From Pseudodesulfovibrio mercurii (lineage in GTDB: Bacteria; Desulfobacterota; Desulfovibrionia; Desulfovibrionales; Desulfovibrionaceae), in contig NC_016803.1 of NCBI RefSeq assembly GCF_000189295.2, positions 90,001-122,000 of the forward strand: a stretch of 32,000 nt of DNA, given 5' to 3'. The position numbers and the translations under genes were made by a program. This document shows, piece by piece, positions 1,224 to 28,518 of this stretch. The notes below the pieces were generated by a model that saw nothing but the letters and a program-made list of their open reading frames with translations, made no database searches and was not told where the DNA came from. The stretch's first letter is position 1. Every line of letters begins with the position of its first letter.

Positions 1224-1346
1224 ACACTTTTTTACAATTTCTGAGTATCCTTTAACCCCTCTGGACCGAAGAATACCCTATGGTGCTTGCACCAAGCGGG
1301 CGATGTCGCCCGTGAACGTACAACCGTAAGGCATTTTGGAGTCCAT

Positions 1347-2528: not shown

Positions 2529-2530
2529 CC

Positions 2531-4474: not shown

Positions 4475-4489
4475 CAAACGGAAACATTC

Positions 4490-6671: not shown

Positions 6672-6772
6672 GCATCCTCCTTGCGGGTTGCGGCCGGGCC
6701 GTGCGGGACCGGCACTTTGCCATGTTCCCATGTTGGCAAAGAGCGATGCAAAGGACAAGGAAAAAGCGCGGG

Positions 6773-9414: not shown

Positions 9415-9429
9415 CCTCCCTCCCGTTGC

Positions 9430-10407: not shown

Positions 10408-10637
10408 CGGTGGACTTCCTTGCAAAAGGGGTTGGGCGTGGATGTTTCGACGGGCGGCGGGCGTCCTGACCGGCACACGGGATGGCTCGGCGGATTCCGT
10501 CGGCGAATGGCGTAAGTATGTAATGGCGGGGACGGACCGGCAACGTCGTCACGGAAATATGTATACGCGTGACATATGATCCCCGGACCCAAGGTCGGGG
10601 CTGGGCCGGGGGGCGGCGGGGAGACCCTTGGGCCGGG

Positions 10638-13926: not shown

Positions 13927-14082
13927 TTCGATTTACATTTTTCTACATTTACGCTCTACGAACACTATAGTTATTTCGCAAAGTTTTTTCAATCATAATA
14001 AAATAGTCATTAATATACTGTTTTAATTTATATTTTACTCAAGAAGACTCTTTGTCTGCCAGTTAAATTTTCAATAATTCAA

Positions 14083-14115
14083 TTCTCGTTTTTAAGAATC
14101 GAGAACGAATCGAGA
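14083..14115. promoter_or_regulatory. Candidate enhancer (UAS) for the NtrC-type activator: inverted repeat TTCTCG-N11-CGAGAA overlapping a tandem GAATCGAGA repeat
   Basis: TTCTCG (14083-14088) pairs with CGAGAA (14100-14105). GAATCGAGA occurs at 14096-14104 and again at 14107-14115. The site lies ~100 bp upstream of the sigma-54 promoter, a typical bEBP distance. Confidence 0.3.
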
Positions 14116-14195
14116 TATGTCTAAGATGGAGTGCGCTGAGCAAATGATTACTTAACTAACTGATTTACTGTATTTTATTGAAAAACAGGCCAAAA

Positions 14196-14211
14196 TGGCA
14201 CGGCGATTGTA
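14196..14211 (+). promoter_or_regulatory. Sigma-54 (RpoN) -24/-12 promoter for the GS-like gene cluster
   Basis: TGGCACGGCGATTGTA versus consensus TGGCACG-N4-TTGCW: correct spacing, and only the -12 C is replaced by T. It sits 90 nt upstream of the ATG at 14301, next to a divergent sigma-54 activator gene. Confidence 0.6.
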
Positions 14212-14300
14212 CTAGATGAAAAAATCACATTGATGAAAATTGTCCGGATTCGGTCCGGGCGAGCGGTATCATAAAATTGCCAAAATGAGGGATTGAGACG

Positions 14301-15677
14301 ATGAGCCTGCCAAAACCATCTTCCATCGACAGCATCAAGAAGCAGATCCGGGATCATGACATCCAGTTCGTCCGTTTCGAGCAAGCGGACCTGTACGGCG
14401 TGTCCCGGAGCAAGACCGTGCCGGTCGGCGCGTTCATGGACTATATAGAGAACGGCCTGAACTTTTACGGCGGACTGCTCGGCCTGGACATCCAGTCCAT
14501 GGTCCCCAAGGGGACCGGGTACGCCGAGGAGGTGGCCTTCGAGGACCATTGCACGGTGCCGGACCTGTCCACCTTCACGGTCCTGCCCTGGGTGCCCAAC
14601 ACGGCCAACATCACCGTGGACCCCTACTGGTACGACGGCCGCCCGGCCATGGCCTCCCCGCGCCTGCTGCTCAAGAAGATCCTCGATGAGTTCGCCGCCA
14701 TGGGCTACATCTGCCGGTTGGGCTACGAGTTCGAGTTCTACGTGCTGGACAAGGAGACCAGGAAGCCGGTCTACGACGGACAGCCCATCTTCGTCACCCT
14801 CAAGAACAACTTCGACATCGACTATACCTACGACCTGATGCGCAAGATGGACCAGGCCGGGGTGCGGATCATCACCCAGAACTCCGAGCACGGGCCGGGA
14901 CAGCAGGAGATCAACCTGTACTACCAGGACGGCCTGCCCGCCGCGGACACCGCCTTCCTCTACAAGATGGGCTGCAAGGAGATTTCCCTGCAGCACGGCT
15001 ACATCGCCACCTGGCTGACCAAGCCGTTCATCAATTCCAGCGCCTCGGGCTCCCACTTCCACGTCTCCCTCATCGACAAGAAGACCGGCAAGAACGCCTT
15101 CAACGCCCCGGACGGCGAGTGCGGCCTGTCCGAGCTGGCGCGCGACTTCCTGGCGGGCATGCTCAAGCACGCCCGGGCCAACACCGTGTTCACCGCCCCG
15201 ACCATCAACTGCTATAAGCGCTACCGGGTCAATTCCTTCGCCCCGCACACCGCCACCTGGGGCATGGAGAACCGCACCGTGGGCATCCGCCTGAAGGGCT
15301 GCCGGGGCGAGTCCACCCATTTCGAGAACCGGCTGGCCTGCGGCGGGACCAACCCCTACCTTCTGGCCCTGTCCACCCTGGCCGCCGGCCTTGAGGGCAT
15401 CCGTTCCAAGCCGGAGTTGCCCGATCCGGTCCTGGGCATCGCCTACGACGATGAAACCCTGCCCAGGCTGCCGTTCACCCTGGACGAGGCCGTGGAGGCC
15501 TTCGAGCAGGACACGGACCTGCATGCCGTGCTCGACCCCGAGTTCATCAAGCTGGTCCTGGCCGTGAAGAAGTTCGAGGTCGAGACCGCCAGGGCCAAGT
15601 TCGCGGACTACGGTACCCCCGAATTCAACAATCGCGTCGATCCATGGGAGTGGGACTACTACATGGAACTGCTGTAG
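14301..15677 (+). CDS. Glutamine-synthetase-family gamma-glutamyl ligase (type I GS-like; PuuA/GmaS/IpuC-like)
   Basis: 458 aa with GS motifs NSEHGPGQQEINL, SGSHFHVSL, NCYKRY, WGMENRTVGIRL and the N-terminal beta-grasp region DIQFVRFEQADLYGVSR. Confidence 0.9.
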   Translation: MSLPKPSSIDSIKKQIRDHDIQFVRFEQADLYGVSRSKTVPVGAFMDYIENGLNFYGGLLGLDIQSMVPKGTGYAEEVAFEDHCTVPDLSTFTVLPWVPNTANITVDPYWYDGRPAMASPRLLLKKILDEFAAMGYICRLGYEFEFYVLDKETRKPVYDGQPIFVTLKNNFDIDYTYDLMRKMDQAGVRIITQNSEHGPGQQEINLYYQDGLPAADTAFLYKMGCKEISLQHGYIATWLTKPFINSSASGSHFHVSLIDKKTGKNAFNAPDGECGLSELARDFLAGMLKHARANTVFTAPTINCYKRYRVNSFAPHTATWGMENRTVGIRLKGCRGESTHFENRLACGGTNPYLLALSTLAAGLEGIRSKPELPDPVLGIAYDDETLPRLPFTLDEAVEAFEQDTDLHAVLDPEFIKLVLAVKKFEVETARAKFADYGTPEFNNRVDPWEWDYYMELL

Positions 15678-15765
15678 ACACCGCACCTCCCAACCCGGGG
15701 AGGGGGGCCTTCCTTCATCCTCCCTCCCCGTGCGGTGTTTTCGAACAGGAGCAACCGGAGCAACA

Positions 15766-16863
15766 ATGAGCACCATTCCCGTCATAGAACTGACCGGCAC
15801 CCCCTTCGAACGGGGCGTCGCCCACGGCCGGGCCCTCGGGGACCTGATCGCGGAGTTCGTGGAGTCCGTGACCTCGGTCCACCAGATGAACAACGGGTTC
15901 ATCCGCGTGGACAAGGACCGGCTCGAAACCTTTTGCATGAAGAATCTCGGCTTCCTCGAAAAGTTCTCCCCCGAGCTGGTGGAGGAGATGCGCGGCATCG
16001 CTGAGGGCGCGGGCGTGACCTTCAAGGAGATTCTCTACCTCAACTCCTTCCTGGAGCTGGAGGACCTGCGTGCGCCCGGCATCGGCGGCACGGTCCTGCC
16101 CGACGGCCTGTGGGGCTGCACCACCTTCAACGTCACCCGCGACGCCGGGGAGGGCGGCCGGGCCTACATCGGCCAGACCTACGACATGGAGAAATACTAC
16201 GAGAGGTTTCTCTGCCTGCTGCGCATCGTTCCGGAACAGGGCCCGGCCCAGCTGGTCATCTCGTTCGCGGGCATCCTCGGCCTGGTCGGCCTGAACGCGG
16301 CGGGCGTGGGCGCGGTCATCAACAAGGTCACGGCCACGGACGCCCGGCCCGGCGTGGTCTACCCGTTCATCATGCGCAGGGCGCTATCCAGCGAGCGCAT
16401 CGGCGACGCGCTGGGCGCGGCCATCTTCTCGCCGCGCGCGGGGGGCATCAACTACCAGTTCGCGGGAAGCGGGGTGGCCTTCTGCGCCGAGACCTCGGCC
16501 GCGTACTACCAGCTCCTCGACATCGACGGGTCCATCGCCCACACCAACCACTTCGTGGGCCGGGACATGCGCCGGTTCGAGACCCCCAACTGGCTGTCCC
16601 ACGGCGGGTCCATGGTGCGCAAGCAGGTGGCCGACAACTTCCTGAAGCGCCATCGCGGCGCCCTCAACCCCGAGAAGCTCAAGGAGCTGACCAGGGACCA
16701 CACCAATTATCCCCGGTGCATCTGCGCCCACGGGTTCCCCGGCGAGGACCCGAAGACGGCCTTCCACACGGTCTTCGCCGTGATCATGGACCCCGAGGCG
16801 GGGTGGCTGGAGCTGTGTTCCGGCAATCCCTGCGAGAATACCTACGAGCGCCACGTCCTCTGA
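15766..16863 (+). CDS. Peptidase C45 / acyl-CoA:6-aminopenicillanic acid acyltransferase-like Ntn hydrolase
   Basis: Start MSTIPVIELTGTPFERGVAHG with GGAG 5 nt upstream. Candidate autoprocessing and nucleophile site G-CTTF (Cys118, nt 16117-16119), as in the G/CTT site of the AAT family. Confidence 0.8.
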   Translation: MSTIPVIELTGTPFERGVAHGRALGDLIAEFVESVTSVHQMNNGFIRVDKDRLETFCMKNLGFLEKFSPELVEEMRGIAEGAGVTFKEILYLNSFLELEDLRAPGIGGTVLPDGLWGCTTFNVTRDAGEGGRAYIGQTYDMEKYYERFLCLLRIVPEQGPAQLVISFAGILGLVGLNAAGVGAVINKVTATDARPGVVYPFIMRRALSSERIGDALGAAIFSPRAGGINYQFAGSGVAFCAETSAAYYQLLDIDGSIAHTNHFVGRDMRRFETPNWLSHGGSMVRKQVADNFLKRHRGALNPEKLKELTRDHTNYPRCICAHGFPGEDPKTAFHTVFAVIMDPEAGWLELCSGNPCENTYERHVL

Positions 16864-16935
16864 CGCGGCGGTGAATCGGCTGATGTTCGGTAGCTGGCAA
16901 GCATTTTCAACATATTAAGCAAGCAGAGGTGTGCA

Positions 16936-18501
16936 ATGGAAACGAATGCGAAGTTGGAGAAGACCCTGAAAGAGTATGAGTCCGGCGGCATGACCCGCCG
17001 CTCGTTCCTCAAGACCATGACCACCCTGGGCGTGGCCGCGGCCGTGGCCAACGCCGTGGCCCTGTCGCCGCTGGGCGCGGTCAAGGCGTTCGCCGCCATC
17101 TCCGGTCCCGAGGAGCGCGCCTGGGCCCTGGCCAAGGTGGCTGCGGCCAAGGCCACGAAGAAGACCCTGACCCTGCTCATTCCCACCGGGTCCATCGGCA
17201 ACATGACCCCGTATGCCGACAAGTGGAAGAACGAACTCGGCATCACCCTGGAGTTCATCGAGGAGCCGGACGAGGTCGTCCACACCAAGGGCATGCAGGA
17301 GGCCGTGGCCAAGACCGGCCGGTACGACGTCATGATGCCCACGGCCATGTCCTATCCGGACTGGATCGACTCCGGCGTCATCTACGACCTGACCGACTGG
17401 ACCGAGAAGTACGACCCCGAGCTGTTCAACAAGGAATGGGGCGTGGTCTTCCCGGCCTCGCACCATGCCCAGCTGTACAACGGCCGCGTGGCCGGTCTGC
17501 TCAACGACGGCGACCAGATCACCCTGCTGTGCCGCAAGGACTACCTTGAGGATTCCGACAAGGCCAAGGCCTTCGAGGACAAGTTCGGCCGCAAGCTGGC
17601 CGTGCCCGACACCTGGAAGGAGTACTACGACCTGGCCTCCTTCATGCATGATCCGGCCAAGGGCTTCTACGGTTCCCTGGAATACCGCTCCCCGTACTAC
17701 GTCAAGTGGATGTTTATGCAGCGCCTCGTGTCCAAGGGCATGCTCTACTTCGACGGCGAGATGAACCCGACCTTCAATTCCGACGAAGGCGTGGCCGCCC
17801 TGGAAGACATGCTGGCCATGAACCAGTTCCTGCACCCGGACGCCTTCTCCTTCACCTGGTCCTCCAACTACAACGCCTTCGGCCGGGGCGAGGGCTTCAT
17901 GAACATCGTCTGGCCGTCCGGCTTCAAGTACTCCATGGCCCCGTCCACCGGCCCGGCCACCACCGGCAAGATCGCGGCCACCGTCATGCCCGCCGACTTC
18001 ACCAAGGACGGCACCAAGCTGTACGCGGGCATGTTCTGCTGGGGCTACGGCTACGCGGTCTCCAAGTATTCCGCCAACCCCGAGCTGGCCTACGCCTACT
18101 CCCAGTGGATGACCTCGCCGACCATCTCGGCCGACGCCATCCCGTACCTCGGCGGCTACTCCGACCCGTATCGCGTCAACCACATGCTCGAACCCACCAA
18201 GCGGCTGGTGGACACCTACACCAAGCCGTACCTGAACACCCTGTACAACAACATGGTCAACACCGTGCCCGACTTCTGCCTGCCCGGCGGCTTCGAGTAC
18301 CAGGACGCCCTGGACAAGGAGGTGCACGCCTGCATGACCGGTTCCAAGAAGCCCAAGGAGGCCCTGGAACAGGCCGCGCACAAGTTCGAGCGCATCACCC
18401 GCCGCATCGGCAAGGACAAGGTCAAGAAGGCCTGGATCGCCCTGACCTCCAACCTGGCCGCGCCCATCAAGAAGGCCGCGGGCGTGGACAACTGGAGCTA
18501 G
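16936..18501 (+). CDS. ABC substrate-binding protein, family 1 (sugar/polyamine type), twin-arginine signal
   Basis: GAGGTG RBS before the ATG at 16936. Tat-like motif GGMTRRSFLKTMTTLGVAAAVANA. 521 aa, long for SBP_bac_1. Followed by the cognate permeases. Confidence 0.85.
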   Translation: METNAKLEKTLKEYESGGMTRRSFLKTMTTLGVAAAVANAVALSPLGAVKAFAAISGPEERAWALAKVAAAKATKKTLTLLIPTGSIGNMTPYADKWKNELGITLEFIEEPDEVVHTKGMQEAVAKTGRYDVMMPTAMSYPDWIDSGVIYDLTDWTEKYDPELFNKEWGVVFPASHHAQLYNGRVAGLLNDGDQITLLCRKDYLEDSDKAKAFEDKFGRKLAVPDTWKEYYDLASFMHDPAKGFYGSLEYRSPYYVKWMFMQRLVSKGMLYFDGEMNPTFNSDEGVAALEDMLAMNQFLHPDAFSFTWSSNYNAFGRGEGFMNIVWPSGFKYSMAPSTGPATTGKIAATVMPADFTKDGTKLYAGMFCWGYGYAVSKYSANPELAYAYSQWMTSPTISADAIPYLGGYSDPYRVNHMLEPTKRLVDTYTKPYLNTLYNNMVNTVPDFCLPGGFEYQDALDKEVHACMTGSKKPKEALEQAAHKFERITRRIGKDKVKKAWIALTSNLAAPIKKAAGVDNWS

Positions 18502-18556
18502 AACGAGACTCCCAACAACCGAACCCGGCCCGGGGGCCATTCCCCGGGCCGGTCAG

Positions 18557-19492
18557 GTGGAAAACGTGACACAGACAGCTATCGGCACCACTCCGGACCG
18601 CAAGGGGTTCAGCAACCAGGCCATCGCCCGCATCTTCACGGTGCCGGGGCAGGTGGTCTCCCTCCTGGTCCTCGTCATGCCGCTCTTGGTGGCATTGTAT
18701 ATGAGCTTCACCGACTGGTCGCCCACGCGCGGCTCCCTGTTCGACGCCTCCTTCGTGGGCTTCGACAACTATTCGGAACTGCTCATCTGGGACACCCGGT
18801 TCATCTACGCGGTCATCCGCACACTGCTCATCTCCGGCATCTGCCTGTGCCTCGAGTTCACCTTCGGGCTCGGCCTGGCGGTCCTGTTCCTGCGCAGGTT
18901 CCGGGGCAAGTCGGTGCTCTTCTCGGCGTTTCTGACGCCCATGATGATCCTGCCCGTGGTGGTGGGGTACATCTTCTGGATGCTCTTCCAGTCCAACGGC
19001 CCGGTGAACCAGATGCTCGAGTTCGTCTTCGGGGCCGGGGCCACCCTGGACTGGTTCCGCTCGGCCGCCCCGGCGATCGTCGCGGTCATCGTCACCGAGG
19101 TCTGGCACTGGACGCCGCTCTTCTTCCTGATCCTGCTCTCCGGGCTCAACTCCGTGCCCGAGAACCCGATACGGGCGGCGGTCATCCTCGGGGCCAACCC
19201 CAGCCAGGTCTTCTGGCGCGTGGTCATGCCGACCCTCAAGCCGGTCATCATCGTGGCCTTCGTCATCCGGGCCATGGAGATCATCAAGCTCTTCGACGAG
19301 GTCTTCATGCTCACCCGGGGCGGGCCCGGCTCCTCCACGGAGACCATCAGCCTGTACATCTACAAGCTGGCCTTCAACGACTTCCAGCTCGCCTACGGCG
19401 CGGCCGCGGCCTTCCTGGTCCTGGTGGGATCGCTCCTGCTGGTCCACCTGCTGCTCGCCCCGGTGCGCAACCAGCTCCTGGAGGGCAAATAA
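18557..19492 (+). CDS. ABC permease (MalF/UgpA/PotB-like, BPD_transp_1)
   Basis: 6 predicted TM segments and an EAA-like loop (AAVILGANPSQVFWRVVMP). The start is GTG at 18557 per the track; the exact start is uncertain. Confidence 0.8.
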   Translation: MENVTQTAIGTTPDRKGFSNQAIARIFTVPGQVVSLLVLVMPLLVALYMSFTDWSPTRGSLFDASFVGFDNYSELLIWDTRFIYAVIRTLLISGICLCLEFTFGLGLAVLFLRRFRGKSVLFSAFLTPMMILPVVVGYIFWMLFQSNGPVNQMLEFVFGAGATLDWFRSAAPAIVAVIVTEVWHWTPLFFLILLSGLNSVPENPIRAAVILGANPSQVFWRVVMPTLKPVIIVAFVIRAMEIIKLFDEVFMLTRGGPGSSTETISLYIYKLAFNDFQLAYGAAAAFLVLVGSLLLVHLLLAPVRNQLLEGK

Positions 19493-20352
19493 TGCAAGAC
19501 AAGAAGCTTTCCCCCGTGCAGACCATCATCATGGGCGCGGCCCTGATCGTGGTCCTGTTCCCGGTCTTCTGGATCCTGATGACGGCCATCAAGCCGCCCA
19601 CCGACTGGAACGCGTCCCCGGCCATCTGGGTCCCGTCCGAGCCGACCTTCGTCAACTTCCAGACCCTGTTCGACCCCGAGGCTTTGGGCAAGTACGGCGT
19701 GGGCGGCGTGAGCCAGCCCGCCACCAAGGCGGTCTTCGGCTCGCTGCTGGCGACCATCGTGTCCACCACCCTGTCCGTGATCATCGGGCTTTTCTCGGCC
19801 ATCGGTATCTCGCGCTACGGGAACAACTCCAAGTCCACGCCCCTGGTCATCCTGTCCGGGCGCATGTTCCCGCCCGCGGCCATCGCCGTGCCCTTCGTGA
19901 TCATCTTCTCGAACATCGGGCTGATCGACAGCTACACCGGACTCATCGCCATCTACGTGGCGGTCACGCTGCCGTTCTCCACCTGGATGCTCAAGTCCTT
20001 CGTGGACGACCTGCCGCGCGAGATCGAGGAGGCGGCCATGATCGACGGGAGCGGCAAGCTGGCCGCGCACCTGACCGTGACCATTCCGCTCATCAAGGGC
20101 GGGCTGTTCGCCACGACCATGTTCATCTTCATTCTCAACTGGTCGGAGTTCATGTTCGCCCTGGTCCTGGCCTATTCGAACATCTCGACCATCCCGGTCC
20201 AGCTCGCCAAGTACGTCACGGCCACGGCCGGGACCCTGTACGGCGTGCAGGCCGCCCTGGCCGTGCTGGCCATGATTCCCTTGGTCATCGTCGGCTACCT
20301 CATCCAAGGCCACCTCGCCCGTGGCATGACATTCGGAGCGATCAAGCAATGA
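19492..20352 (+). CDS. ABC permease (MalG/UgpE/PotC-like, BPD_transp_1)
   Basis: MQDKKLSPVQTIIMGAALIVVLFPVFWILMTAIKP. EAA loop EEAAMIDGSGKLAAHLTVTIP. The ATG at 19492 overlaps the preceding TAA by 1 nt. Confidence 0.85.
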   Translation: MQDKKLSPVQTIIMGAALIVVLFPVFWILMTAIKPPTDWNASPAIWVPSEPTFVNFQTLFDPEALGKYGVGGVSQPATKAVFGSLLATIVSTTLSVIIGLFSAIGISRYGNNSKSTPLVILSGRMFPPAAIAVPFVIIFSNIGLIDSYTGLIAIYVAVTLPFSTWMLKSFVDDLPREIEEAAMIDGSGKLAAHLTVTIPLIKGGLFATTMFIFILNWSEFMFALVLAYSNISTIPVQLAKYVTATAGTLYGVQAALAVLAMIPLVIVGYLIQGHLARGMTFGAIKQ

Positions 20353-21461
20353 GCAGACCCAAACTGGAACTGGTGAAGCTGCGCAAGGAATATTCCGACG
20401 GCAACGTCATCGCCGTGGACGACATCGACCTGGCCGTGGAGGCCGGGGAGACCGTGGCCCTGCTGGGCTCCTCCGGCTGCGGCAAGTCCACCACCCTGAA
20501 CATGATCGTCGGTCTGGAGCAGCCCACCGGCGGCGACATCCAGATCGACGGGGCCACCGTGGTCAACACCCCGGCGGGCAAGCGCAACGTGGGGCTGGTC
20601 TTCCAGGACTACGCGGTCTTCACCCACATGACCGTGCGCAAGAACCTGGCCTTCGGCCTGGAGGTGCGCGGCAAGTACGTGCTGGAGATCAACCGGGCCG
20701 TGGAGGGCGTGGCCGAGTTGCTCGGCATGCAGGACAAGCTCGACGTCAGCGTCAAGGAGCTGGGCGGCTCGGAGCTCCAGCGGGTGGCCATCGGCCGGAC
20801 CCTGGTGACCAAGCCGGAGATCCTGCTCCTGGACGAGCCCCTGTCCAACCTGGAGGCCGAGGCGCGGCTGGCCATGCGCCGCGAACTCAGGCGGTTGCAG
20901 CAGGAGATCGGCCTGACCATCATCTACGTGACCCACGACCAGGTGGAGGCCCTGTCCCTGGCCGACCGCATCGCGGTCATGAACATGGGCCACATCCTCC
21001 AGGTGGAGGAGACCTCGACCATCTTCGCCCGGCCGGACCACACCTTTGTGGCCGGGTTCCTGGGCTCGCCGCCCATGAACCTGCTGCGCGGCCGGTTCGT
21101 CACCGACGGCGGGGCCATCCGTTTCACCAAGGACGCCTTTTCCCTGGCCATGGGCGAGAGTGCCGACGGTCCCGCGCCCGGCGGGTTCCACACCCTGGGC
21201 GTGCGTCCCGAATCCCTGAGCCTGTCCGAGTCGCGGACGCCGGACATCACCGGGCGCATCCACAACGTGGAGCCGCGCGGCCCGGAGATGGTCGTCACCG
21301 TGGAGGCGGGCCACGAGATGCTCACCCTGGTCACGCCGCCCTCGGGCGCCCTGCACACGGGCGACCCCGTGGGGCTCGATATCGACTTCGACTCCCTGGT
21401 CTTCTTCGGCGGGGACAGCAACCGCCGCGAGGAGATCAGCGTGGCCGGGAGGGTTTTCTGA
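20349..21461 (+). CDS. ABC ATPase 1 (MalK/UgpC/PotA-like with C-terminal TOBE-like domain); degenerate signature motif
   Basis: Walker A GSSGCGKST, Q-loop VFQDYAVF, Walker B ILLLDEPLSNLE and H-loop VTHDQ are all canonical. The signature is LGGSE (nt 20760-20774) instead of LSGGQ. ATGA overlap with the permease gene. Confidence 0.9.
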   Translation: MSRPKLELVKLRKEYSDGNVIAVDDIDLAVEAGETVALLGSSGCGKSTTLNMIVGLEQPTGGDIQIDGATVVNTPAGKRNVGLVFQDYAVFTHMTVRKNLAFGLEVRGKYVLEINRAVEGVAELLGMQDKLDVSVKELGGSELQRVAIGRTLVTKPEILLLDEPLSNLEAEARLAMRRELRRLQQEIGLTIIYVTHDQVEALSLADRIAVMNMGHILQVEETSTIFARPDHTFVAGFLGSPPMNLLRGRFVTDGGAIRFTKDAFSLAMGESADGPAPGGFHTLGVRPESLSLSESRTPDITGRIHNVEPRGPEMVVTVEAGHEMLTLVTPPSGALHTGDPVGLDIDFDSLVFFGGDSNRREEISVAGRVF

Positions 21462-22582
21462 TGACGACCGCCAACATCGGGGGGCAGACCCCCGTCCTGC
21501 ACCTGGAATCCGTGTCCAAGCGGTTCCGCGACAACCAGGCCCTGAGCGGAGTGGACTTCGTCGTGCCCGAGGCCTCGCTGACCGTCATCCTCGGCCCGGC
21601 CGGGGCGGGCAAGACCACCACCCTGCGGATCATCGCCGGGCTGGAGACGCCCGAGCAGGGGCGCGTGCTCCTGGGCGGCGGCGACGTGGGCCGGTGGGAG
21701 CCGCGCGACCGCAACGTGGCCATGATCTTCGACAACCTGGCGCTCTATCCGAACAAGAGCGGCTTCGACAATATCGCCTCGCCCCTGGTCATCCGCAAGG
21801 AGAGCGGGGAGGTCATCCGGGAGCGCGTGGAGGGGATCGCCAAGACTCTGCAGATCACCCACGTGCTCGGGCGGCTGCCCAAGACCATGTCCGGCGGCGA
21901 GAAGCAGCGCGTGGCCCTGGGGAGGGCGCTCATCCGCACGCCCCAGCTCTTCCTGCTCGACGAGCCCCTGTCCAGCCTGGACGCCAAGCTGCGCATCGAA
22001 CTGCGCGCGGAGCTGCGGCGCATGCAGCGCGAGCAGGGGTACACCTTCCTCATGGCCACGCCCGACTACCACGAGGCCATGGCCATCGCGGACACGGTGA
22101 TCATGCTGAGCAAGGGCCGCGTGGTCCAGGTGGACGCGCCCCAGACCATCTACGATCTGCCCGCGGACCGCGAGACCGCCTGCTTCGTGGGCGCGCCCCA
22201 GATCAACCTGTTCCGGGGCGAGTTCGACGAGGCCTCCGGCACGGTCCGCATCAAGGACGCCGGGGTGTCCCTGGCCGCGCCCGAGCATCTGGCCGCGCCC
22301 CTCAAGGCCAGGGGGAGCGGGTTCGAGCTGGGCATCCGTCCGGAGAACCTGGTCCTGACCGCGCCGGACGGAGCCCCGGCCGTGGGCGAGCTGATCGACA
22401 TCGAGCCGCTCGGACCCAAGTCCGTGGCCACGGTGCGCGTGCACGACGCCGAGTTCCGCGTGCTCATCGACAGCCGCGAGGTCCCCGGCCTGACCCTGCA
22501 CGCACCCATCGGGGTGACCCCGGTGAACACCGCGCGCATGGTCGCCTTCGACCTCGAAACCGGGTTGCGGATACAGGCATGA
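21461..22582 (+). CDS. ABC ATPase 2 (MalK/UgpC-like); degenerate Q-loop and H-loop
   Basis: Walker A GPAGAGKTT, signature MSGGEKQRV and Walker B LFLLDEPLSSLD are intact. The Q-loop Gln is Asp (IFDN, nt 21731-21733). The H-loop His is Pro (ATPDYHEA, nt 22061-22063). TGATG overlap with ATPase 1. Confidence 0.85.
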   Translation: MTTANIGGQTPVLHLESVSKRFRDNQALSGVDFVVPEASLTVILGPAGAGKTTTLRIIAGLETPEQGRVLLGGGDVGRWEPRDRNVAMIFDNLALYPNKSGFDNIASPLVIRKESGEVIRERVEGIAKTLQITHVLGRLPKTMSGGEKQRVALGRALIRTPQLFLLDEPLSSLDAKLRIELRAELRRMQREQGYTFLMATPDYHEAMAIADTVIMLSKGRVVQVDAPQTIYDLPADRETACFVGAPQINLFRGEFDEASGTVRIKDAGVSLAAPEHLAAPLKARGSGFELGIRPENLVLTAPDGAPAVGELIDIEPLGPKSVATVRVHDAEFRVLIDSREVPGLTLHAPIGVTPVNTARMVAFDLETGLRIQA

Positions 22583-23547
22583 TCAACATCTTCGTCACCT
22601 ACCGGTGCAACCTCGCCTGCTCCTACTGCTTCGCCAGGGAGCTGCACGCCGAGTACCCCGAGGACCTGACCGAGGAGAACTTCGCCCGGCTCCTGGAATG
22701 GATGGAGCGGGCGCAGCTCCCGGCGGCGGCCTTCATCGGCGGCGAGCCGACCCTGCACCCGCTGCTGCCGTACATGGTCGAGCGCACGGCCGAGGCGGGC
22801 ATCGCCCCGGTGCTGTTCACCAACGGCCTGTTCCCCACGGACCTGGCGGACCGGCTCACGCCCGTGGTCTCCAACTTCGTGGTCAACTACAACGAGCCGT
22901 CCATGTACTCCGACACGCAGGCAGCGCTGCTCGACGCCAACCTGACGGCCATCGCCCGGTCCGGGGCGCGGCTGACCTTCTCCAAGAACTTTTCCAGCCG
23001 GTACCGCGAGTACGGCTACCTGCTGGAGGGGTGCGCCCGGTACGGGGTGCAGTCCGTGCGCTACGACATCTCTCGGCCGTCCATCTCGGCGGCCAACGAC
23101 CACTTCACCAACGACGACACGCGGCAGGTCATCTCCCACATCGTCCGTTTCGTGAAGGCGTGCGAGGAGCGGGGCATCCGCACCGGGCTTGATTGCAGCG
23201 TCCGTTTGTGCGACCTCAGGATCGAAGACCGGAACTACCTCGAGCGGGTGTCCATGAAGTTCTCCGGGGTCTGCCATCCGTCCATCGACGTGCATCCGGA
23301 CCTGTCCGCGTCCTACTGCCTGCCCATGCGGGACATCGCGGTGCCGGACGTGACCGCCTTTTCGAGCCAGGACGCGGTCATGTGGCACTTCGCCGAGCGG
23401 GTACGGCCCATCCGCAAGGCCAACGTGTCCACGGACTGCCTGGAGTGCAAGGACTTCATGCGCCGCTGCCAGGGGGGCTGCATGGCCCTGCGCCGCGCCG
23501 CCGCACCGGCCGCGCCGGACACCGATGACAACGCCAAGGAAGCATAG
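22579..23547 (+). CDS. Radical SAM enzyme with C-terminal SPASM/twitch-like Cys cluster (322 aa)
   Basis: CNLACSYC (CX3CX2C, Cys10/14/17, nt 22606-22629) and FIGGEPTL (SAM-binding GGE). The C-terminus has GVCHPSIDVHPDLSASYC and CLECKDFMRRCQGGC (CX2CX6CX3C, nt 23437-23481). ATGA overlap with ATPase 2. Confidence 0.85.
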   Translation: MINIFVTYRCNLACSYCFARELHAEYPEDLTEENFARLLEWMERAQLPAAAFIGGEPTLHPLLPYMVERTAEAGIAPVLFTNGLFPTDLADRLTPVVSNFVVNYNEPSMYSDTQAALLDANLTAIARSGARLTFSKNFSSRYREYGYLLEGCARYGVQSVRYDISRPSISAANDHFTNDDTRQVISHIVRFVKACEERGIRTGLDCSVRLCDLRIEDRNYLERVSMKFSGVCHPSIDVHPDLSASYCLPMRDIAVPDVTAFSSQDAVMWHFAERVRPIRKANVSTDCLECKDFMRRCQGGCMALRRAAAPAAPDTDDNAKEA

Positions 23548-23550
23548 ATA

Positions 23551-26235
23551 ATGAGCCGACGGAAGATCGTGACCACCTGCACCCGGGACTGCCCCAACTC
23601 CTGCGGCCTGATCGCCGTGGTGGAGGACGGGCGGCTGGTCAAGCTCTCGGGCGACCCGGACCACCCCCTGACCGGCGGGGTGTCCTGCCACAAGACCGCC
23701 AAGTACATCAAGCGGGTGTACAGCGCCGAGCGCATCACCCACCCCCTGCGCAAGGTGGACGGCCGCTGGCGACGGGCGACCTGGGACGAGGTCCTGGACC
23801 TGGTGGCCGACAAATTGAAGGCGGTGGTCGCCGAGTCGGGGCCCGAGGCGGTCCTGTACTACCAGGGGTACGGCGAGCGCACGGCGCTCAAGCTCCTGAA
23901 CAAGTATTTCTTCAACCTGCTGGGCGGGGCCACGACCATGCGCGGCTCCCTGTGCGGCGGGGCCGGGCAGGGGGCCCAGAACCTGGACTTCGGCAACCGC
24001 GTGTCCCACGACCCGTTGGACCATTACAACTCCAAGTCCATGATCCTGTGGGCGCGCAACCCGGTGTCCACGAACATCTCCCTTGTCAGGATCGCCAAGG
24101 ACATCAGGAAGCGCGGCGGCCGCGTGATCGTCGTGGACCCGGCGCGCAGCCTGTCCGTGAACATCGCCACCGACCACATCCGGCCCAAGCCGGGCCGCGA
24201 CGGCTTCCTGGCCATGGCCGCGGCCAAGCTGATCCTCAAGGCCGGGGCCGAGGACCGCGATTTTCTGGAGAACCGGGCCGTGGGCTGGGCCGAGTACCAG
24301 GCCATCCTCGACGGCTTCACCGTGCCCGAGCTGTGTTCCCTGGCCGGGGTGTCCACGGCCGACGCCGAACTGCTGGCCGACACCCTGATGCATCAGTTCC
24401 CGACCTCCATCCTGCTCGGCTGGGGGCTGCACCGCCACGAGTACGCCCACTACGTCATCCGGCCCATCGACGCCCTGGGCGGCATCGCGGGCCTCCTCGG
24501 CACGGCGGGCGGCGGGGTCAGCCAGGGGTTCGAGGAGTACGGCCCCTACGACCAGGCCTGGTGGGGCGACCAGCTGCACCCGGACCACCGGACCCTGCTC
24601 ATCGCCAAGGTGGGCGAGGAGATCCTGAACGCGCGCGACCCGGAGATCCGCATGATCGTGGTCACGGCGGGCAACCCTGTGTGCATGGCCCCCAACGCGG
24701 ACAAGATCGTCCGGGCGTTCAAGAAGGCCGAGATGGTCGTCTACTCCGGCCACTTCCTGGACGACACCGCCGAGCTGGCCGACATCTTTTTGCCCGCGAC
24801 GACCTTCCTGGAGGAGGACGACCTGATGGCCAGCTACGGCCACAACTTCGTGGGCCCGGTGAACCCGGCCATCGAGCCGGTGGGCGAGACCAAGTCCGAA
24901 TTTCAGATGTTCCAGGAATTGTCCGAGCGGTTCCCCTTTGCCGGGGAATACCGGCGGTCCGTGGCCGACTGGCTGCAAACCATCTGCGCCCCGCTCTGGG
25001 AGCAGGGCGCGGACCTCGAAACCGTGCGCAGGGGGCCGTTCCGTCTGGACGCGCCCATGGTCCCGTACGCGGACGGCGTGTTCCCCACCGAATCGGGCAA
25101 GTTCCAGTTCATGACGGAATTCGACCCGGCCGTGCTTCAGGACGAGGACCCGGAATATCCGTACAAGCTCCTGACCATCGCGCCCCACGGGTACATCTGC
25201 TCCGAGCGGACCATGGCCGAGCACGAGGCGTTGCCCACGGTCGTCCTGAACACCGAGGAGGCCCGCAGGCGGGGCGTGTGCGACGGCGGCCACGTGCTGG
25301 TGCGCAGCGCCTACGGCCGGCTCATGGCCCTGCTCAAGGTGGACGAGGCCACGCGGGGCGACGTGCTCGTCACCGAGCGCGGCGGCTGGAACAAGGCGGG
25401 CCACGGGGTCAACCTGCTGACCAGGGACATCGCCTCCATCGTGGGCCAGGGCACGCCGTTCTACGAGACCAGGGTCACGGTGGAGCCGTGCCCGGACGAC
25501 GGGATCATCGGCTCCCGCGTGCTGGTAATCCAGCACTCGGACGAGTCGCCCGGCGGCAATTTCACCAAGGAACTGGCCCGGCAGGGGTGCCTACTGACCA
25601 CCGTCATGCCCGGCGAAGGGGACGCGCTGCCCGATTCGCCCGAGGGGTTTGACCGATTGGTGGTCCTGGGCGGCCCGCAGCACGCCTTCGACGATCAGGG
25701 CTCGCCGCACTTCCCGGCGCTGATGCAACTCATGCGCGGCTTCGACGCGGCGGGCAAGCCCGTGGCGGGCATCTGCCTGGGCTGCCAGATCCTGGCCAGG
25801 GCCTTCGGCGCGACCATCCGGACCATGCCCGAGCTGGAGTTCGGCTACGTGCGGCTGACCGTGACCGAGGCGGGCGCGCAGGACCCGGTGGTGGGCCCGG
25901 CCGGGCCCATCCCGCCGCTCATGGAGTTCCACGAGGACACCTTCGACCTGCCCGAGGGGGCCGAACTGCTGGTCACGGGCGCGGCCTGCGCCAACCAGTG
26001 CTTCCGGGCGGGCAACGCCTCCTACGGGTTTCAGTTTCACCTGGAGCTGGACTCCATCGGGGCCGAGGCGTGGTTCGAAGAGTTCCAGCGCGGCGACATC
26101 GACACCTACGCGAAATACCGCGACCAGTTCACCGACGAATTCTTTGCCGAGATGCGCGGCCGGTTTCCGCTCCTCGTTCCGCAGTCCGGGGACTTCTGCC
26201 GGAACGTGGCCCGGAATTGGCTCCGGCTGAAATAG
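23551..26235 (+). CDS. Cytoplasmic Mo/W-bis-PGD (DMSO-reductase/MopB superfamily) oxidoreductase fused to a C-terminal class-I glutamine amidotransferase domain (894 aa)
   Basis: The N-terminus, with no Tat signal, has C10-X3-C14-X3-C18-X27-C46 ([4Fe-4S] domain). Molybdopterin and Molydop_binding regions follow (YPYKLLTIAPHG...VLVRSAYGRLMALLKVDE). From ~nt 25490 there is a GATase1 domain: RVLVIQH, VVLGGP, GICLGCQ (Cys742, nt 25774-25776) and FQFHLE (His830, nt 26038-26040). It starts 4 nt after the radical SAM stop. Confidence 0.85.
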   Translation: MSRRKIVTTCTRDCPNSCGLIAVVEDGRLVKLSGDPDHPLTGGVSCHKTAKYIKRVYSAERITHPLRKVDGRWRRATWDEVLDLVADKLKAVVAESGPEAVLYYQGYGERTALKLLNKYFFNLLGGATTMRGSLCGGAGQGAQNLDFGNRVSHDPLDHYNSKSMILWARNPVSTNISLVRIAKDIRKRGGRVIVVDPARSLSVNIATDHIRPKPGRDGFLAMAAAKLILKAGAEDRDFLENRAVGWAEYQAILDGFTVPELCSLAGVSTADAELLADTLMHQFPTSILLGWGLHRHEYAHYVIRPIDALGGIAGLLGTAGGGVSQGFEEYGPYDQAWWGDQLHPDHRTLLIAKVGEEILNARDPEIRMIVVTAGNPVCMAPNADKIVRAFKKAEMVVYSGHFLDDTAELADIFLPATTFLEEDDLMASYGHNFVGPVNPAIEPVGETKSEFQMFQELSERFPFAGEYRRSVADWLQTICAPLWEQGADLETVRRGPFRLDAPMVPYADGVFPTESGKFQFMTEFDPAVLQDEDPEYPYKLLTIAPHGYICSERTMAEHEALPTVVLNTEEARRRGVCDGGHVLVRSAYGRLMALLKVDEATRGDVLVTERGGWNKAGHGVNLLTRDIASIVGQGTPFYETRVTVEPCPDDGIIGSRVLVIQHSDESPGGNFTKELARQGCLLTTVMPGEGDALPDSPEGFDRLVVLGGPQHAFDDQGSPHFPALMQLMRGFDAAGKPVAGICLGCQILARAFGATIRTMPELEFGYVRLTVTEAGAQDPVVGPAGPIPPLMEFHEDTFDLPEGAELLVTGAACANQCFRAGNASYGFQFHLELDSIGAEAWFEEFQRGDIDTYAKYRDQFTDEFFAEMRGRFPLLVPQSGDFCRNVARNWLRLK

Positions 26236-26267
26236 CCGGTCCCGCACCCGCCGTCTCTCGCGCAAGG

Positions 26268-26305
26268 AAAGGGAAGGTCTTCCGAAGAAGACCTTCCCTT
26301 TTTAT
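26268..26305 (+). terminator. Rho-independent terminator ending the nine-gene cluster
   Basis: AAAGGGAAGGTCTTC-CGAA-GAAGACCTTCCCTTTTT: perfect stem followed by a T-run, 33 nt after the stop. Confidence 0.8.
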
Positions 26306-26478
26306 GTTTGTTTCACCCTCCGCGCCGCAGGCGCCGGATGGGGTGCAGGGGTGCGAACCCTATCGCTGCTGTCGCCATCTCCGGGGCTCGAAGACTCGCC
26401 AAGAGCTGGGGCTGCCCGCCGGAGGCGAAGTCATCCGTCAATCGCCGCGCAGCGGCCTTCAAACCTGATTTTCCCCCG

Positions 26479-27300
26479 CTAGTCGGTCGGCCGCCAGAGG
26501 AAGGTGCTCGCGCCCTTGCCGATGATGGTCAGGCGGAAGTGTTCGTCGCAGGGTCGTCCCGCCGCGCCGCAGCAGACGTGCAGGGGCAGGAGGTGCTCCT
26601 CGCGCGGGTGGCAGTAGCGGGCGTGGGGCGCGGATTCCCAGTGGACGAGCCGTTGCCCGCGTTCGTCCGGGGTCAGGGCCGGGTCGGCGCAGGTCTCGAT
26701 GAGCCACCGCTGGAACGCGTCGTTGGCGTCGGCGGTCTCGGCCGTGTCCGGGGTGAAGAAGGCGCGCATGTTGTGGAAGGAGAATCCCGAGCCGAGGATG
26801 AGCAGATTGTCCCGGTCGAGGTCGGCCAGGGCCCGGCCCAGGGCCAGGTGCGCCGCCGGGTCGAGTCCCTTGAGCAGGGAGAGCTGCACGCAGGGGATGT
26901 CCGCCTCGGGGTACATGATCTTGAGCGGCACGAACAGGCCGTGGTCGTAGCCGCGCTCCGGCTCTTGGCCGCAGGGCAGGCCGCGGGCGGCCAGGGCGTC
27001 GCGGACCGCTTGGGACAGCGCGTCGTCGCCCGGGGCGGGGTAGGCGATCTCGTAGGACTCCGGGGGGAAGCCGTAGTAGTCGTAGTAGAGGGGCGGACGG
27101 TCGCCCATGGTCACGGTGGGGGCGGATTCCTCCCAGTGGGCGCTGATCACCAGGATGGCGGACGGCCGGGGGATGCGCGCGGTCAGGACCTTGAGGTTGG
27201 CGACCATCTCGGCGTGGCCCTCGTCGCCGAGCAGGGGCAGGGGGCCCGCGCCGTGGGAGATGTAGATGACGGCGTGGCGGCCGGGCTTGGGTTCTTGCAT
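26479..27300 (-). CDS. 4,5-DOPA dioxygenase extradiol-like protein (YgiD / class III extradiol dioxygenase family)
   Basis: HAVIYISHGAGPLPLL, ILVISAHWE, YDYYGFP, YDHGLFVPL and LILGSGFSFHN are hallmarks of the LigB/YgiD family. AAGGAA RBS. Confidence 0.85.
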   Translation of the reverse strand: MQEPKPGRHAVIYISHGAGPLPLLGDEGHAEMVANLKVLTARIPRPSAILVISAHWEESAPTVTMGDRPPLYYDYYGFPPESYEIAYPAPGDDALSQAVRDALAARGLPCGQEPERGYDHGLFVPLKIMYPEADIPCVQLSLLKGLDPAAHLALGRALADLDRDNLLILGSGFSFHNMRAFFTPDTAETADANDAFQRWLIETCADPALTPDERGQRLVHWESAPHARYCHPREEHLLPLHVCCGAAGRPCDEHFRLTIIGKGASTFLWRPTD

Positions 27301-27309
27301 GATCTTTCC

Positions 27310-28398: not shown

Positions 28399-28518
28399 GT
28401 GCATCGCTCCGGTGTTCCGGTGGGGGAAGGGCGGTCGCACCTTCCCGTATGGCCATGCTACGGCGGATGGGCGGAGAGGGAAAGTTTTTTCCCGGAGCGG
28501 GGGGCGGGGCGAACGAAG

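Follow-up and report, generated by a model that had tools for sequence, protein, structure and literature searches.

A conserved nine-gene operon of Pseudodesulfovibrio mercurii with a predicted glutamate-amine ligase and a molybdoenzyme-GATase fusion, and its counterpart in aerobic Proteobacteria

What does a sulfate reducer do with an operon that opens with a protein of the glutamine synthetase (GS) family and closes with a molybdoenzyme fused to a class-I glutamine amidotransferase (GATase) domain? The question is raised by a stretch of 32,000 nucleotides of the P. mercurii genome (contig NC_016803.1, positions 90,001 to 122,000), hereafter called the window, in which nine genes occupy positions 14301 to 26235. 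A preliminary description had proposed that they encode a sigma-54-controlled, gamma-glutamylation-type pathway for amines or amides, in which radical SAM and molybdenum enzymes do the work of oxygenases. Computation established the gene content and its co-conservation, the active-site inventories, the conservation of the promoter and the presence of a homologous system in aerobes. On this basis we consider it somewhat probable that the operon serves the sigma-54-dependent uptake and use of a sugar- or polyol-like nitrogen compound, with glutamate as the carrier.

Layout, transcription signals and conservation of the operon

The window has a GC content of about 68%, and real genes were distinguished by a GC content at third codon positions (GC3) above 0.9. 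Nine co-directional open reading frames (ORFs) on the + strand, with coding GC3 of 0.91-0.96, make up the cluster. Gene 9 is a single reading frame for a protein of 894 aa (23551-26235) that combines Molybdop_Fe4S4, Molybdopterin, Molydop_binding and GATase domains; its two parts are listed separately.

14301..15677, + strand: gene 1, predicted GS-like glutamate-organic-amine ligase, 458 aa (Gln-synt_C; active-site alignment; NpaA1 as best PDB match)
15766..16863, + strand: gene 2, C45-family autoproteolytic N-terminal-nucleophile (Cys) amidohydrolase/acyltransferase, 365 aa (NF040521; Pfam AAT)
16936..18501, + strand: gene 3, solute-binding protein (SBP), CUT1 (sugar/polyol)-like, with twin-arginine signal, 521 aa (SBP_bac_1)
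18557..19492, + strand: gene 4, ABC permease 1, UgpA/GlcT-like (BPD_transp_1; top NCBIfam matches GlcT and UgpA)
19492..20352, + strand: gene 5, ABC permease 2, UgpE/GlcU-like (BPD_transp_1; top NCBIfam matches GlcU and UgpE)
20349..21461, + strand: gene 6, ABC ATPase 1, MalK/UgpC-like (ABC_tran, OB_MalK, TOBE_2; UgpC subfamily 324 bits)
21461..22582, + strand: gene 7, ABC ATPase 2, distinct from ATPase 1, MalK/UgpC-like (ABC_tran, OB_MalK, TOBE_2; UgpC subfamily 293 bits)
22579..23547, + strand: gene 8, radical SAM enzyme with Cys-rich, SPASM-like C-terminal half, 322 aa (Radical_SAM, Fer4_12)
23551..25500, + strand: gene 9, N-terminal part, cytoplasmic oxidoreductase domain of the Mo/W-bis(pyranopterin guanine dinucleotide) (bisPGD) type (Molybdop_Fe4S4, Molybdopterin, Molydop_binding)
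25501..26235, + strand: gene 9, C-terminal part, class-I GATase domain, PRK07053 / GuaA-N-terminal-like (PF00117; NF005458)

Pfam and NCBIfam profile searches confirmed every domain that had been named for the cluster, namely GS, C45, SBP, permeases, ATPases, radical SAM, Mo and GATase. The start of gene 2 could lie at an in-frame GTG as early as 15730; the ATG at 15766 agrees better with the orthologues. The tight packing described earlier was exact at five junctions (TAATG at 19490-19494, ATGA at 20349-20352, TGATG at 21459-21463, ATGA at 22579-22582 and a 3-nt gap at 23548-23550), but not at the first three, which are loose with gaps of 88, 72 and 55 nt.

The transcription signals and the adjoining regulatory genes are the following.

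13927..14300, no strand: AT-rich divergent regulatory region (from the sequence; short inverted and direct repeats)
14196..14211, + strand: predicted sigma-54 -24/-12 promoter element, TGGCAC-N5-TTGTA (consensus match; kept in orthologous loci)
15678..15738, + strand: stable hairpin followed by UUUU, 3' of gene 1 (fold -37.2 kcal/mol, z -2.4)
18525..18552, + strand: 11-bp GC hairpin 3' of the SBP gene (fold -28.4 kcal/mol, z -3.1)
26266..26310, + strand: intrinsic terminator (17-bp stem and T-run at 26266-26303, z -3.6)
12040..13926, - strand: cytoplasmic hybrid PAS histidine kinase, PAS-HisKA-HATPase-REC, divergent from the operon (Pfam PAS_4/PAS_9, HisKA, HATPase_c, Response_reg)
10638..12032, - strand: NtrC-type sigma-54 enhancer-binding response regulator, REC, AAA+ (GAFTGA) and helix-turn-helix domains (NCBIfam AtoC/NtrC-like)

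The promoter element TGGCACGGCGATTGTA at 14196-14211 is the sole match to TGGCAY-N5-TTGH in the window, where 0.24 matches are expected; since 20 of 100 shuffled sequences contained at least one, this single match is weak on its own. The prediction is better supported by conservation, because TGGCA[CT]-N5-TTG recurs in about 20 orthologous loci, where it precedes the GS-like gene by 80-113 nt. There the spacer varies, and TTGA or TTGT is commoner than TTGC in the -12 part. Around the element GC content falls to 0.53 (interval 14001-15000). The conserved element and the adjoining activator with its GAFTGA loop point to sigma-54 control, as had been proposed, and the domain matches agree with the description of a divergent PAS kinase and an NtrC-type activator next door. 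The activator scores 334/314 bits against AtoC/NtrC-like NCBIfam models, under their equivalog cut-offs. Its orthologues (56-75% identity) adjoin the cluster in other loci, and the kinase is co-conserved beside the GS-like gene at 46-91% identity. The kinase has no obvious membrane segment. Its second PAS region carries, at residues ~180-200, a Cys motif C-x13-C-x2-C (RRCYQMFGGRDDPCPHCPTF), a possible binding site for a metal or an Fe-S cluster. At the other end of the operon, the 17-bp stem and T-run bear out the terminator reported earlier. The hairpin after gene 1 is a possible partial terminator or transcript-stabilising element.

The nine genes travel together. A search with the Mo::GATase protein returned more than 100 full-length fusions across the Desulfovibrionales, and Megalodesulfovibrio gigas, Oceanidesulfovibrio marinus and a termite-gut Desulfovibrio metagenome-assembled genome (MAG) have all nine genes in this order, with identities of 47-86%. 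A scan seeded with the radical SAM protein, with one genome per species and orthologues accepted at 46% identity or above, yielded 25 loci, and all nine genes were present in every locus with enough sequence; metagenome contigs add about 10 further nine-gene loci. Carriers within the Desulfovibrionaceae belong to Pseudodesulfovibrio, Megalodesulfovibrio, Oceanidesulfovibrio and termite-gut Desulfovibrio MAGs, and those beyond the family are strain NaphS2 and MAGs labelled Syntrophobacteraceae and Desulfobacterium. Of the species-representative genomes scanned, that of P. karagichevae 9FUS came nearest (83-96% identity per protein).

Five of these loci, in two Syntrophobacteraceae MAGs, one Desulfobacterium sp. 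MAG, NaphS2 and one Desulfovibrionaceae MAG, have a second gene order, GS-C45-rSAM-Mo::GATase-ABC (rSAM, radical SAM), with the four enzyme genes contiguous and the kinase/activator pair upstream; in NaphS2 the ABC block is inverted. The GS-C45 and rSAM-Mo::GATase pairs are never split. As the genes have been rearranged without loss, a functional linkage is well supported, and the earlier expectation of co-conservation across genomes holds in every locus of sufficient length, in two gene orders. No extra conserved gene was found in the nine-gene loci or in the aerobic loci described below; most additional clusters of similar ORFs were antisense shadows of the kind produced by high GC content.

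That a GS-like gene opens and a GATase domain closes the cluster, as first described, is true here but not universal, as Mo::GATase proteins and unfused Mo proteins also occur elsewhere. A Mo::GATase gene stands alone in Nitratidesulfovibrio sp. SRB-5, and unfused Mo proteins (64-65% identical) stand alone in Desulfomicrobium baculatum and one further assembly. Neighbours of stand-alone Mo(-GATase) genes encode ATP-grasp, GCS2, N-formylglutamate amidohydrolase and gamma-glutamyltranspeptidase proteins in one case and ATP-grasp and Mur-type ligase proteins in another. These amide-ligase neighbours hint at a Mo enzyme that acts on glutamyl conjugates.

Predicted active sites and candidate pathway

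The protein of gene 1 matches Gln-synt_C with E = 7.7e-80 and falls under all GlnA, GSIII and PuuA equivalog cut-offs (TIGR00653, 225 bits vs a cut-off of 429; TIGR03105, 254 vs 470). Alignment with the S. typhimurium and E. coli GlnA sequences showed that the ligands of metal, ATP and glutamate are all present (E129, E131, E212, E220, H269, H271, R321, R339, R344, E357 and R359). In the ammonium site Asp50' is replaced by Tyr, Glu327 of the flap by Phe and Tyr179 by a residue that is Pro or Gln according to the alignment used. After 'NFYGG' there are 12 inserted residues, an insertion also seen in PuuA and NpaA1. The ammonium-site substitutions are invariant across the sulfate-reducer loci and the aerobic loci in alignments with E. 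coli GlnA and PuuA. The closest solved structure is 8wwu (E 1.3e-59), which is NpaA1, the gamma-glutamylating enzyme for 1-naphthylamine (PMC11335346). Ligases for organic amines have lost the Glu flap and Asp50', and an extra motif lines their amine tunnel (PMC11335346). The active-site signature and the nearest characterised relative together suggest that gene 1 encodes an organic-amine-type glutamate ligase that would form gamma-glutamyl amides. An ordinary ammonia-assimilating GlnA was rejected on the replacement of Asp50', Glu327 and Tyr179 and on equivalog scores far under the cut-offs; with the insertion and with NpaA1 as closest solved relative, this sustains the initial view of the protein as something other than GlnA.

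The C45 protein scores 222 bits against the C45_proenzyme model NF040521, which has a cut-off of 85. Its Gly117-Cys118 pair aligns with the processing site Gly102-Cys103 of isopenicillin-N acyltransferase and is invariant in four orthologues, and we predict from this conserved site that the protein is catalytically competent. C45 homologues on plasmids were only 26-30% identical and had no common context.

The GATase domain (PF00117, 7.5e-12; NF005458, 132 bits) has an intact catalytic Cys (GICLG) and His-x-Glu (FQFHLE). The Cys-His-Glu triad is also intact in every cluster-embedded GATase examined (>50), while five Mo::GATase homologues without a Pfam GATase match have the catalytic Cys replaced, and some of them His or Glu as well. 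Since the triad is kept in the 50 or more embedded copies and Cys is replaced in homologues without a Pfam GATase match, the GATase appears to be under selection in the cluster context. The Cys-less homologues are L140 (Fundidesulfovibrio butyratiphilus), P0077, P0079, P0082 and P0100. L140, the one whose context was checked, stands alone near genes for a RimK-like ATP-grasp protein, GCS2, N-formylglutamate amidohydrolase and gamma-glutamyltranspeptidase. The domain had initially been taken for a PuuD-type untagging partner; this identity was rejected, as BLASTP against E. coli PuuD gave E = 1.1 and the group is PRK07053 / GuaA-N-terminal-like. A few sulfate-reducer loci have an extra stand-alone GATase besides the fused domain, 38-42% identical to the GATase of the Bosea locus type (L018:3031-3579, L019:3105-3653, L103:9084-9632 and L021:14212-14760).

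An exact-sequence look-up of the gene 9 protein returned no record. All three Mo-domain matches of gene 9 are above the Pfam cut-offs. The domain has an N-terminal [4Fe-4S] motif CX3CX3C...C, and no signal peptide is visible in the translation. Its invariant Cys135 aligns with SeCys140, the selenocysteine (Sec) of FdhH, and is followed by an invariant Gly in place of His141; the region of FdhH Arg333 is replaced by an invariant GGGVSQGFEEYG. An FdhF-type formate dehydrogenase was rejected on the lack of the Sec/Cys-His dyad and of Arg333 and on a TIGR01591 score of 203 bits vs 666. No NCBIfam equivalog cut-off is reached by the Mo domain (NasC, 137 bits vs 1100; NasA, 124 vs 1000), and no other GATase fusion was found among the Mo/W-bisPGD entries compared.

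Gene 8 matches Radical_SAM above the cut-off (E = 3.8e-12) and also Fer4_12. The protein has the CX3CX2C motif, a GGEP motif and nine more invariant Cys, including CX2CX6CX3C; the Cys pattern is SPASM-like, yet the Pfam scan gave no SPASM match. Its gene lies directly upstream of the Mo::GATase gene in all loci of both gene orders, with overlapping or nearly overlapping stop and start codons in the window, M. gigas and O. marinus. NCBIfam returned a weak match to the radical SAM maturase of tungsten-cofactor oxidoreductases (8.7e-11), and BlsE is among the weak PDB matches. Distant relatives, 23-29% identical over the full length, were collected in 55 loci (L035-L089), where the neighbours include aldose-1-epimerase-like (14), U32-like (13) and DMSO-reductase-family plus 4Fe-4S proteins (8-9). 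Such relatives are common in Clostridia, Eggerthellaceae, Anaerolineae and Terracidiphilus.

The importer consists of a complete CUT1-type set, with SBP_bac_1, two BPD_transp_1 permeases and MalK-like ATPases with TOBE domains. It is unusual in having two different ATPase genes and a signal of the twin-arginine translocation (Tat) type on the SBP. NCBIfam placed the permeases and ATPases best with the Ugp, Glc and Mal systems, and PDB matches of the SBP, searched alone or as a profile, were exclusively sugar- and polyol-binding proteins. The SBP is 100% identical to a P. mercurii protein, and strain ND132 or a nearly identical one is very probably the source of the window. The twin-arginine RR is invariant across Delta-, Alpha- and Betaproteobacteria, and the mean column identity of 84% over the same groups is high for an SBP. 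Many His, Cys and Trp residues of the mature protein are invariant; Tat export is unusual for an SBP. The 'amine/amide' substrate named in the preliminary description is narrowed by this CUT1 (sugar/polyol)-like importer: as judged from the transporter family, the imported compound is probably polar, polyhydroxylated (sugar- or polyol-like) and nitrogen-containing. Ethanolamine, polyamines, methylamine, amino sugars, Amadori compounds, opines, hydroxamates, hydrazides and thiol conjugates were weighed as substrates, and none was either supported or excluded.

From these predictions we infer a pathway, including the order of its steps, the direction of its redox chemistry and the role of the radical SAM protein. 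The adjacent PAS kinase and NtrC-type regulator would switch the operon on via sigma-54; conservation of the promoter is an observation, and the function assigned to the pair is our reading of it. The Tat-exported SBP and the CUT1-type ABC importer would then take the compound in (step 1), and the C45 enzyme would cut an amide bond of the substrate itself or of an intermediate formed later (step 2). With ATP, the GS-like ligase would couple the gamma-carboxyl group of glutamate to the exposed amine-type nitrogen (step 3). The radical SAM enzyme and the Cys-ligated Mo/W-bisPGD domain would carry out redox chemistry on the gamma-glutamyl intermediate (step 4), and the fused GATase would hydrolyse the gamma-glutamyl amide, possibly glutamine, to glutamate and ammonia or product (step 5).

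A variant of this scheme, rather than a competitor, assigns the radical SAM protein another job and leaves the rest unchanged: it would be a maturase that modifies the Mo::GATase protein, or the C45 protein, in the manner of anaerobic sulfatase-maturing enzymes or the radical SAM maturases of tungsten enzymes. The nine extra SPASM-like Cys, the fixed position of the gene directly upstream of Mo::GATase, the weak tungsten-cofactor maturase match and the 8-9 of 55 distant relatives that lie beside DMSO-reductase-family and 4Fe-4S proteins all suit such a role, and no conserved gene of precursor-peptide size was found in the cluster. However, stand-alone Mo::GATase and unfused Mo proteins (58-66% identity) occur without an adjacent radical SAM gene, and so do Mo enzymes in the aerobic loci. 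Many SPASM/twitch radical SAM enzymes use small carbohydrate-like molecules (BtrN, BlsE), and the weak match to BlsE would be in keeping with a small substrate of this kind. We regard the maturase role as possible, though on the unlikely side.

Counterpart loci in aerobic Proteobacteria and the redox step

A translated search of annotated plasmids found an SBP 82% identical to that of the window on plasmid pRACO34Ab of Rhizobium sp. ACO-34A. There the whole importer is orthologous, and the genes after it encode a GATase that stands alone, a GS-like ligase, an amidase of the amidase-signature type, a 2Fe-2S ferredoxin and GlyA. Upstream is the gene of a MocR-type regulator, and a ferredoxin-NADP reductase (FNR), a PNPOx-like flavoprotein and an AidB-like dehydrogenase are encoded nearby. 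Further SBP orthologues, 74-83% identical, were found in Bosea, Rubrivivax, Tropicimonas, Poseidonocella, Roseibium and Kiloniellaceae. From genome neighbourhoods and about 25 metagenome contigs we defined a second locus type with the arrangement MocR, then importer, Mo-bisPGD enzyme (not always present, with or without a thioredoxin-reductase-like flavoprotein), GATase, GS-like ligase and amidase. Named examples are those of Rhizobium sp. ACO-34A (pRACO34Ab), Bosea sp. 117, Rubrivivax gelatinosus and Tropicimonas marinistellae. MocR-type regulators typically sense amines through pyridoxal phosphate.

The importer is the best conserved part, with 75-88% identity to the window for the SBP and 71-83% for the permeases. 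The near-identity of the SBP implies that the anaerobes and the aerobes would take up the same or a very similar substrate. The GS-like ligases of the aerobes are 40-43% identical to gene 1, with the same diagnostic substitutions and the insertion, and their GATases are 31-35% identical to that of the window and fall in the same NCBIfam group. In Rubrivivax gelatinosus the GATase and Gln-synt_C domains are fused in one protein of 715 aa (L094:15663-17810). GlyA adjoins two aerobic loci, an arrangement compatible with a route that yields glycine. A core of importer, GS-like ligase, intact GATase, amide hydrolase (C45 or amidase-signature) and redox module is thus common to both locus types. A remoter importer copy, with an SBP of 41% identity, is encoded on pGal_C110 of Phaeobacter gallaeciensis (L093), where the neighbouring genes encode a Rieske oxygenase and its reductase, RidA, an alcohol dehydrogenase and a binding protein of the betaine type; this copy probably serves a different substrate.

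The redox modules of the aerobes bear on step 4. About 8 of 13 long loci have a Mo-bisPGD enzyme, which is unfused and 26-29% identical to the gene 9 domain, with CxRDCxxxCG and C-x2-AG-[QH] motifs common to both. Five of these loci also have an FNR-type flavoprotein, namely the thioredoxin-reductase-like protein, which is without the CxxC disulfide and which we take to be a ferredoxin-NADP-reductase subtype. The loci without a Mo enzyme have a PNPOx-like flavoprotein and a plant-type FNR instead, sometimes together with a 2Fe-2S ferredoxin, and no oxygenase component was found in the aerobic loci examined. Because aerobes often carry a Mo-bisPGD enzyme at the same position, this enzyme is not specifically an anaerobic substitute for an oxygenase. 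The preliminary proposal that Mo and radical SAM enzymes replace an oxygenase in anaerobes is therefore not supported; the accessory proteins of the aerobes are electron-donating, and a reductive step is no less likely than an oxidative one.

A reductive glutamate-carrier pathway, in which no oxygenase would be replaced, can be formulated from this. The amidase would free a reactive nitrogen nucleophile or an N-O or N-N (or S-O) fragment, the ligase would trap it as a gamma-glutamyl derivative, the Mo enzyme would reduce it and the GATase would split the product. The Mo step might yield glutamine itself, which the GATase would convert to glutamate and ammonia. The electron donor would be ferredoxin or flavodoxin in sulfate reducers and the dedicated FNR-type flavoprotein in the aerobes. 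The Mo enzyme followed by an FNR-type flavoprotein in five aerobic loci is consistent with this, as are the electron-donating sets of the Mo-less loci. With its Cys ligand, monomeric form and one [4Fe-4S] cluster, the Mo domain is like assimilatory nitrate and S-S/S-O reductases. Adjacency or fusion of Mo enzyme and GATase in both locus types fits a Mo product that is the GATase substrate, and the GATase belongs to a glutamine-type, GuaA-like group. A ligase for nucleophiles that are not protonated at neutral pH could do without Asp50' and Glu327. Glutamylhydrazine is handled jointly by a GS homologue and an amidase in the biosynthesis of fosfazinomycin and kinamycin.

Several points weaken the reductive pathway. 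FNR-type enzymes run either way, and at 26-29% identity the two Mo enzymes may catalyse different reactions. The radical SAM protein is left without an obvious job, and we could name no abundant sugar-like N-O or N-N compound to match a distribution over soil, sea, sediment and termite gut. We consider this pathway doubtful. A related reading, to which we give a slim chance, is a widespread and so far unrecognised nitrogen-salvage route common to the cluster and its aerobic counterpart, with glutamate as carrier of a reactive or oxidised nitrogen group. After release of this group by the amidase and its capture by the ligase, a new class of Cys-ligated Mo-bisPGD reductase, aided by the radical SAM protein in the anaerobes, would form glutamine for hydrolysis by the fused GATase. 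If this were true, Mo::GATase would be a substrate-channelling enzyme unprecedented in the DMSO reductase family.

We return to the pathway of steps 1 to 5. Its gamma-glutamyl part is supported because ligase, GATase, amide hydrolase and importer are common to both locus types and because GATase fusions link this domain to the ligase in one type and to the Mo enzyme in the other. The central idea of the preliminary description, gamma-glutamylation, thus gains from the organic-amine-type ligase and the conserved GATase, as far as sequence can tell. Other observations weigh against the pathway. Gene 1 scores slightly higher against archaeal and Firmicute GSI-alpha than against the methylamine ligase GmaS. 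The GATase is not related to PuuD by sequence, and no characterised member of its family was found. In minimal aerobic loci nothing but a small flavoprotein accompanies the importer, GATase, GS-like ligase and amidase, and a logic of 'tag, oxidise, untag' is not obviously complete there. The 55 distant radical SAM relatives have no dominant partner gene, and the protein of the window could itself be a maturase, SPASM-like Cys being typical of protein and peptide modifiers. The occurrence of Mo::GATase and unfused Mo proteins outside the cluster means that the Mo enzyme may have a more general substrate.

The operon might instead convert an imported starting compound into a gamma-glutamyl amide that serves as osmolyte, signal or cofactor precursor. 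GS-like ligases, N-terminal-nucleophile acyltransferases (isopenicillin-N acyltransferase belongs to C45) and radical SAM enzymes are common in natural-product pathways, and glutamate carriers are known in the biosynthesis of butirosin and fosfazinomycin. This explanation is very improbable: the genes are tied to a high-affinity SBP importer and to an inducible switch (two-component/sigma-54 or MocR), an intact hydrolytic GATase is always present, conserved exporter, scaffold or tailoring genes were not found, and the cassette is compact in organisms of very different lifestyles. Ordinary nitrogen assimilation by a working glutamine synthetase and an assimilatory nitrate-type reductase in an Ntr-style operon, which the NtrC-like activator, the sigma-54 promoter, the weak NasC and NasA matches and the GltBD genes adjoining the Rubrivivax locus might suggest, is largely refuted by the active-site analysis and barely credible, as Asp50', Glu327 and Tyr179 are all replaced in both locus types, the GlnA, GSIII, NasC and NasA scores lie far under the cut-offs, and a sugar-type importer and two amide hydrolases would have no role in nitrate use.

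Known systems, surrounding genes and significance

Among the closest parallels are the pathways for aniline (AtdA1/AtdA2 and TdnQ/TdnT) and 1-naphthylamine (NpaA1/NpaA2, PMC11335346). Their ligases likewise have an extra loop and neither Asp50' nor the Glu flap, and a class-I GATase-like hydrolase is encoded with the ligase. They differ in using a Rieske dioxygenase on hydrophobic arylamines and in having no such importer, C45 protein, radical SAM protein or Mo enzyme; the insertion in gene 1 is also far less aromatic than the tunnel loop of NpaA1. The Puu/Pau pathway (PuuA, PuuB, PuuC, PuuD) has the same logic of tagging, modifying and untagging. Over 423 residues gene 1 and E. coli PuuA share 28% identity (E 3e-47); both have the insertion and lack Asp50' and Glu327. 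Unlike Puu, the cluster has no PuuB- or PuuC-type enzyme, and its importer is CUT1-like, not PotFGHI or PuuP. Ethanolamine utilisation by Streptomyces GlnA4 (PMC6529630) and the Phaeobacter genes MED193_10026-10056 (PMC10132767) also combines a GS-like ligase with a gamma-glutamyl amidohydrolase for nitrogen and carbon nutrition. Those clusters have two NAD-dependent dehydrogenases and a TRAP transporter instead, and no amidase, Mo enzyme or radical SAM protein. The N-methylglutamate pathway (GmaS, MgsABC, MgdABCD) was excluded, as domains of N-methylglutamate synthase or dehydrogenase are absent from the window and the related loci; GmaS structures were weaker matches to gene 1 than NpaA1.

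The aerobic loci, for which no published characterisation was found, are also close, with their orthologous importer, GS-like ligase, same-group GATase, amide hydrolase and redox module. They differ from the window in having an amidase-signature enzyme rather than C45, no radical SAM protein, and MocR rather than a sigma-54 two-component system. The Mo domain resembles FdhF, NarB/NasA and acetylene hydratase in its N-terminal [4Fe-4S] cluster, single catalytic subunit, lack of a signal peptide and Cys at the SeCys140 position. It is unlike FdhF-type enzymes in the absence of His141 and Arg333, in its CX3CX3C motif and in the GATase fusion. The ligase type and the tag/untag logic are therefore known, while the transporter, C45 protein, radical SAM protein, Mo-bisPGD enzyme and Mo-GATase fusion are not part of the known handle pathways. 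The earlier statement that no characterised pathway has such a composition was in line with the full-text literature, in which none was found, subscription-only papers lying outside this coverage; published work on a piezophile transcriptome, on D. anilini and on arsenic in strain ND132 concerns other genes.

The remainder of the window contains the following genes.

1287..5875, + strand: MacA/MacB/TolC-like efflux system at the left end of the window (domain similarity)
5973..6896, - strand: sulfite-oxidase-type molybdoprotein (Oxidored_molyb)
6773..8629, - strand: ABC ATPase fused to a Peripla_BP_2 domain (domain match)
8626..9414, - strand: permease (member of the upstream - strand set)
9430..10476, - strand: NMT1/SsuA-like binding protein (member of the upstream - strand set)
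26479..28440, - strand: LigB-family and ADP-ribosylglycohydrolase genes just downstream of the terminator (family match)

The upstream - strand set at 5973-10476 is unrelated to the operon. The efflux system and the LigB and ADP-ribosylglycohydrolase genes are not conserved beside the cluster in other genomes.

To our knowledge, gamma-glutamyl 'handle' pathways are known so far from aerobes alone, where they work with oxygenases, oxidases or NAD-dependent dehydrogenases. The cluster joins this handle logic to a radical SAM protein and a Mo enzyme that is physically fused to an untagging-type domain, and the chemistry of the Mo::GATase fusion and the radical SAM protein may prove new. P. mercurii ND132 is a genetically tractable model strain for mercury methylation. 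The SBP is about 80% identical in the easily grown Rhizobium, Bosea and Rubrivivax, so the ligand of one protein would name the substrate for all. The cluster occurs in sulfate reducers of sediments, vents, groundwater and termite guts, and its transporter-sharing counterpart in soil and marine aerobes. Such a spread suggests an abundant nitrogen-containing nutrient that has gone unrecognised, and at least two enzyme families of uncharacterised chemistry.

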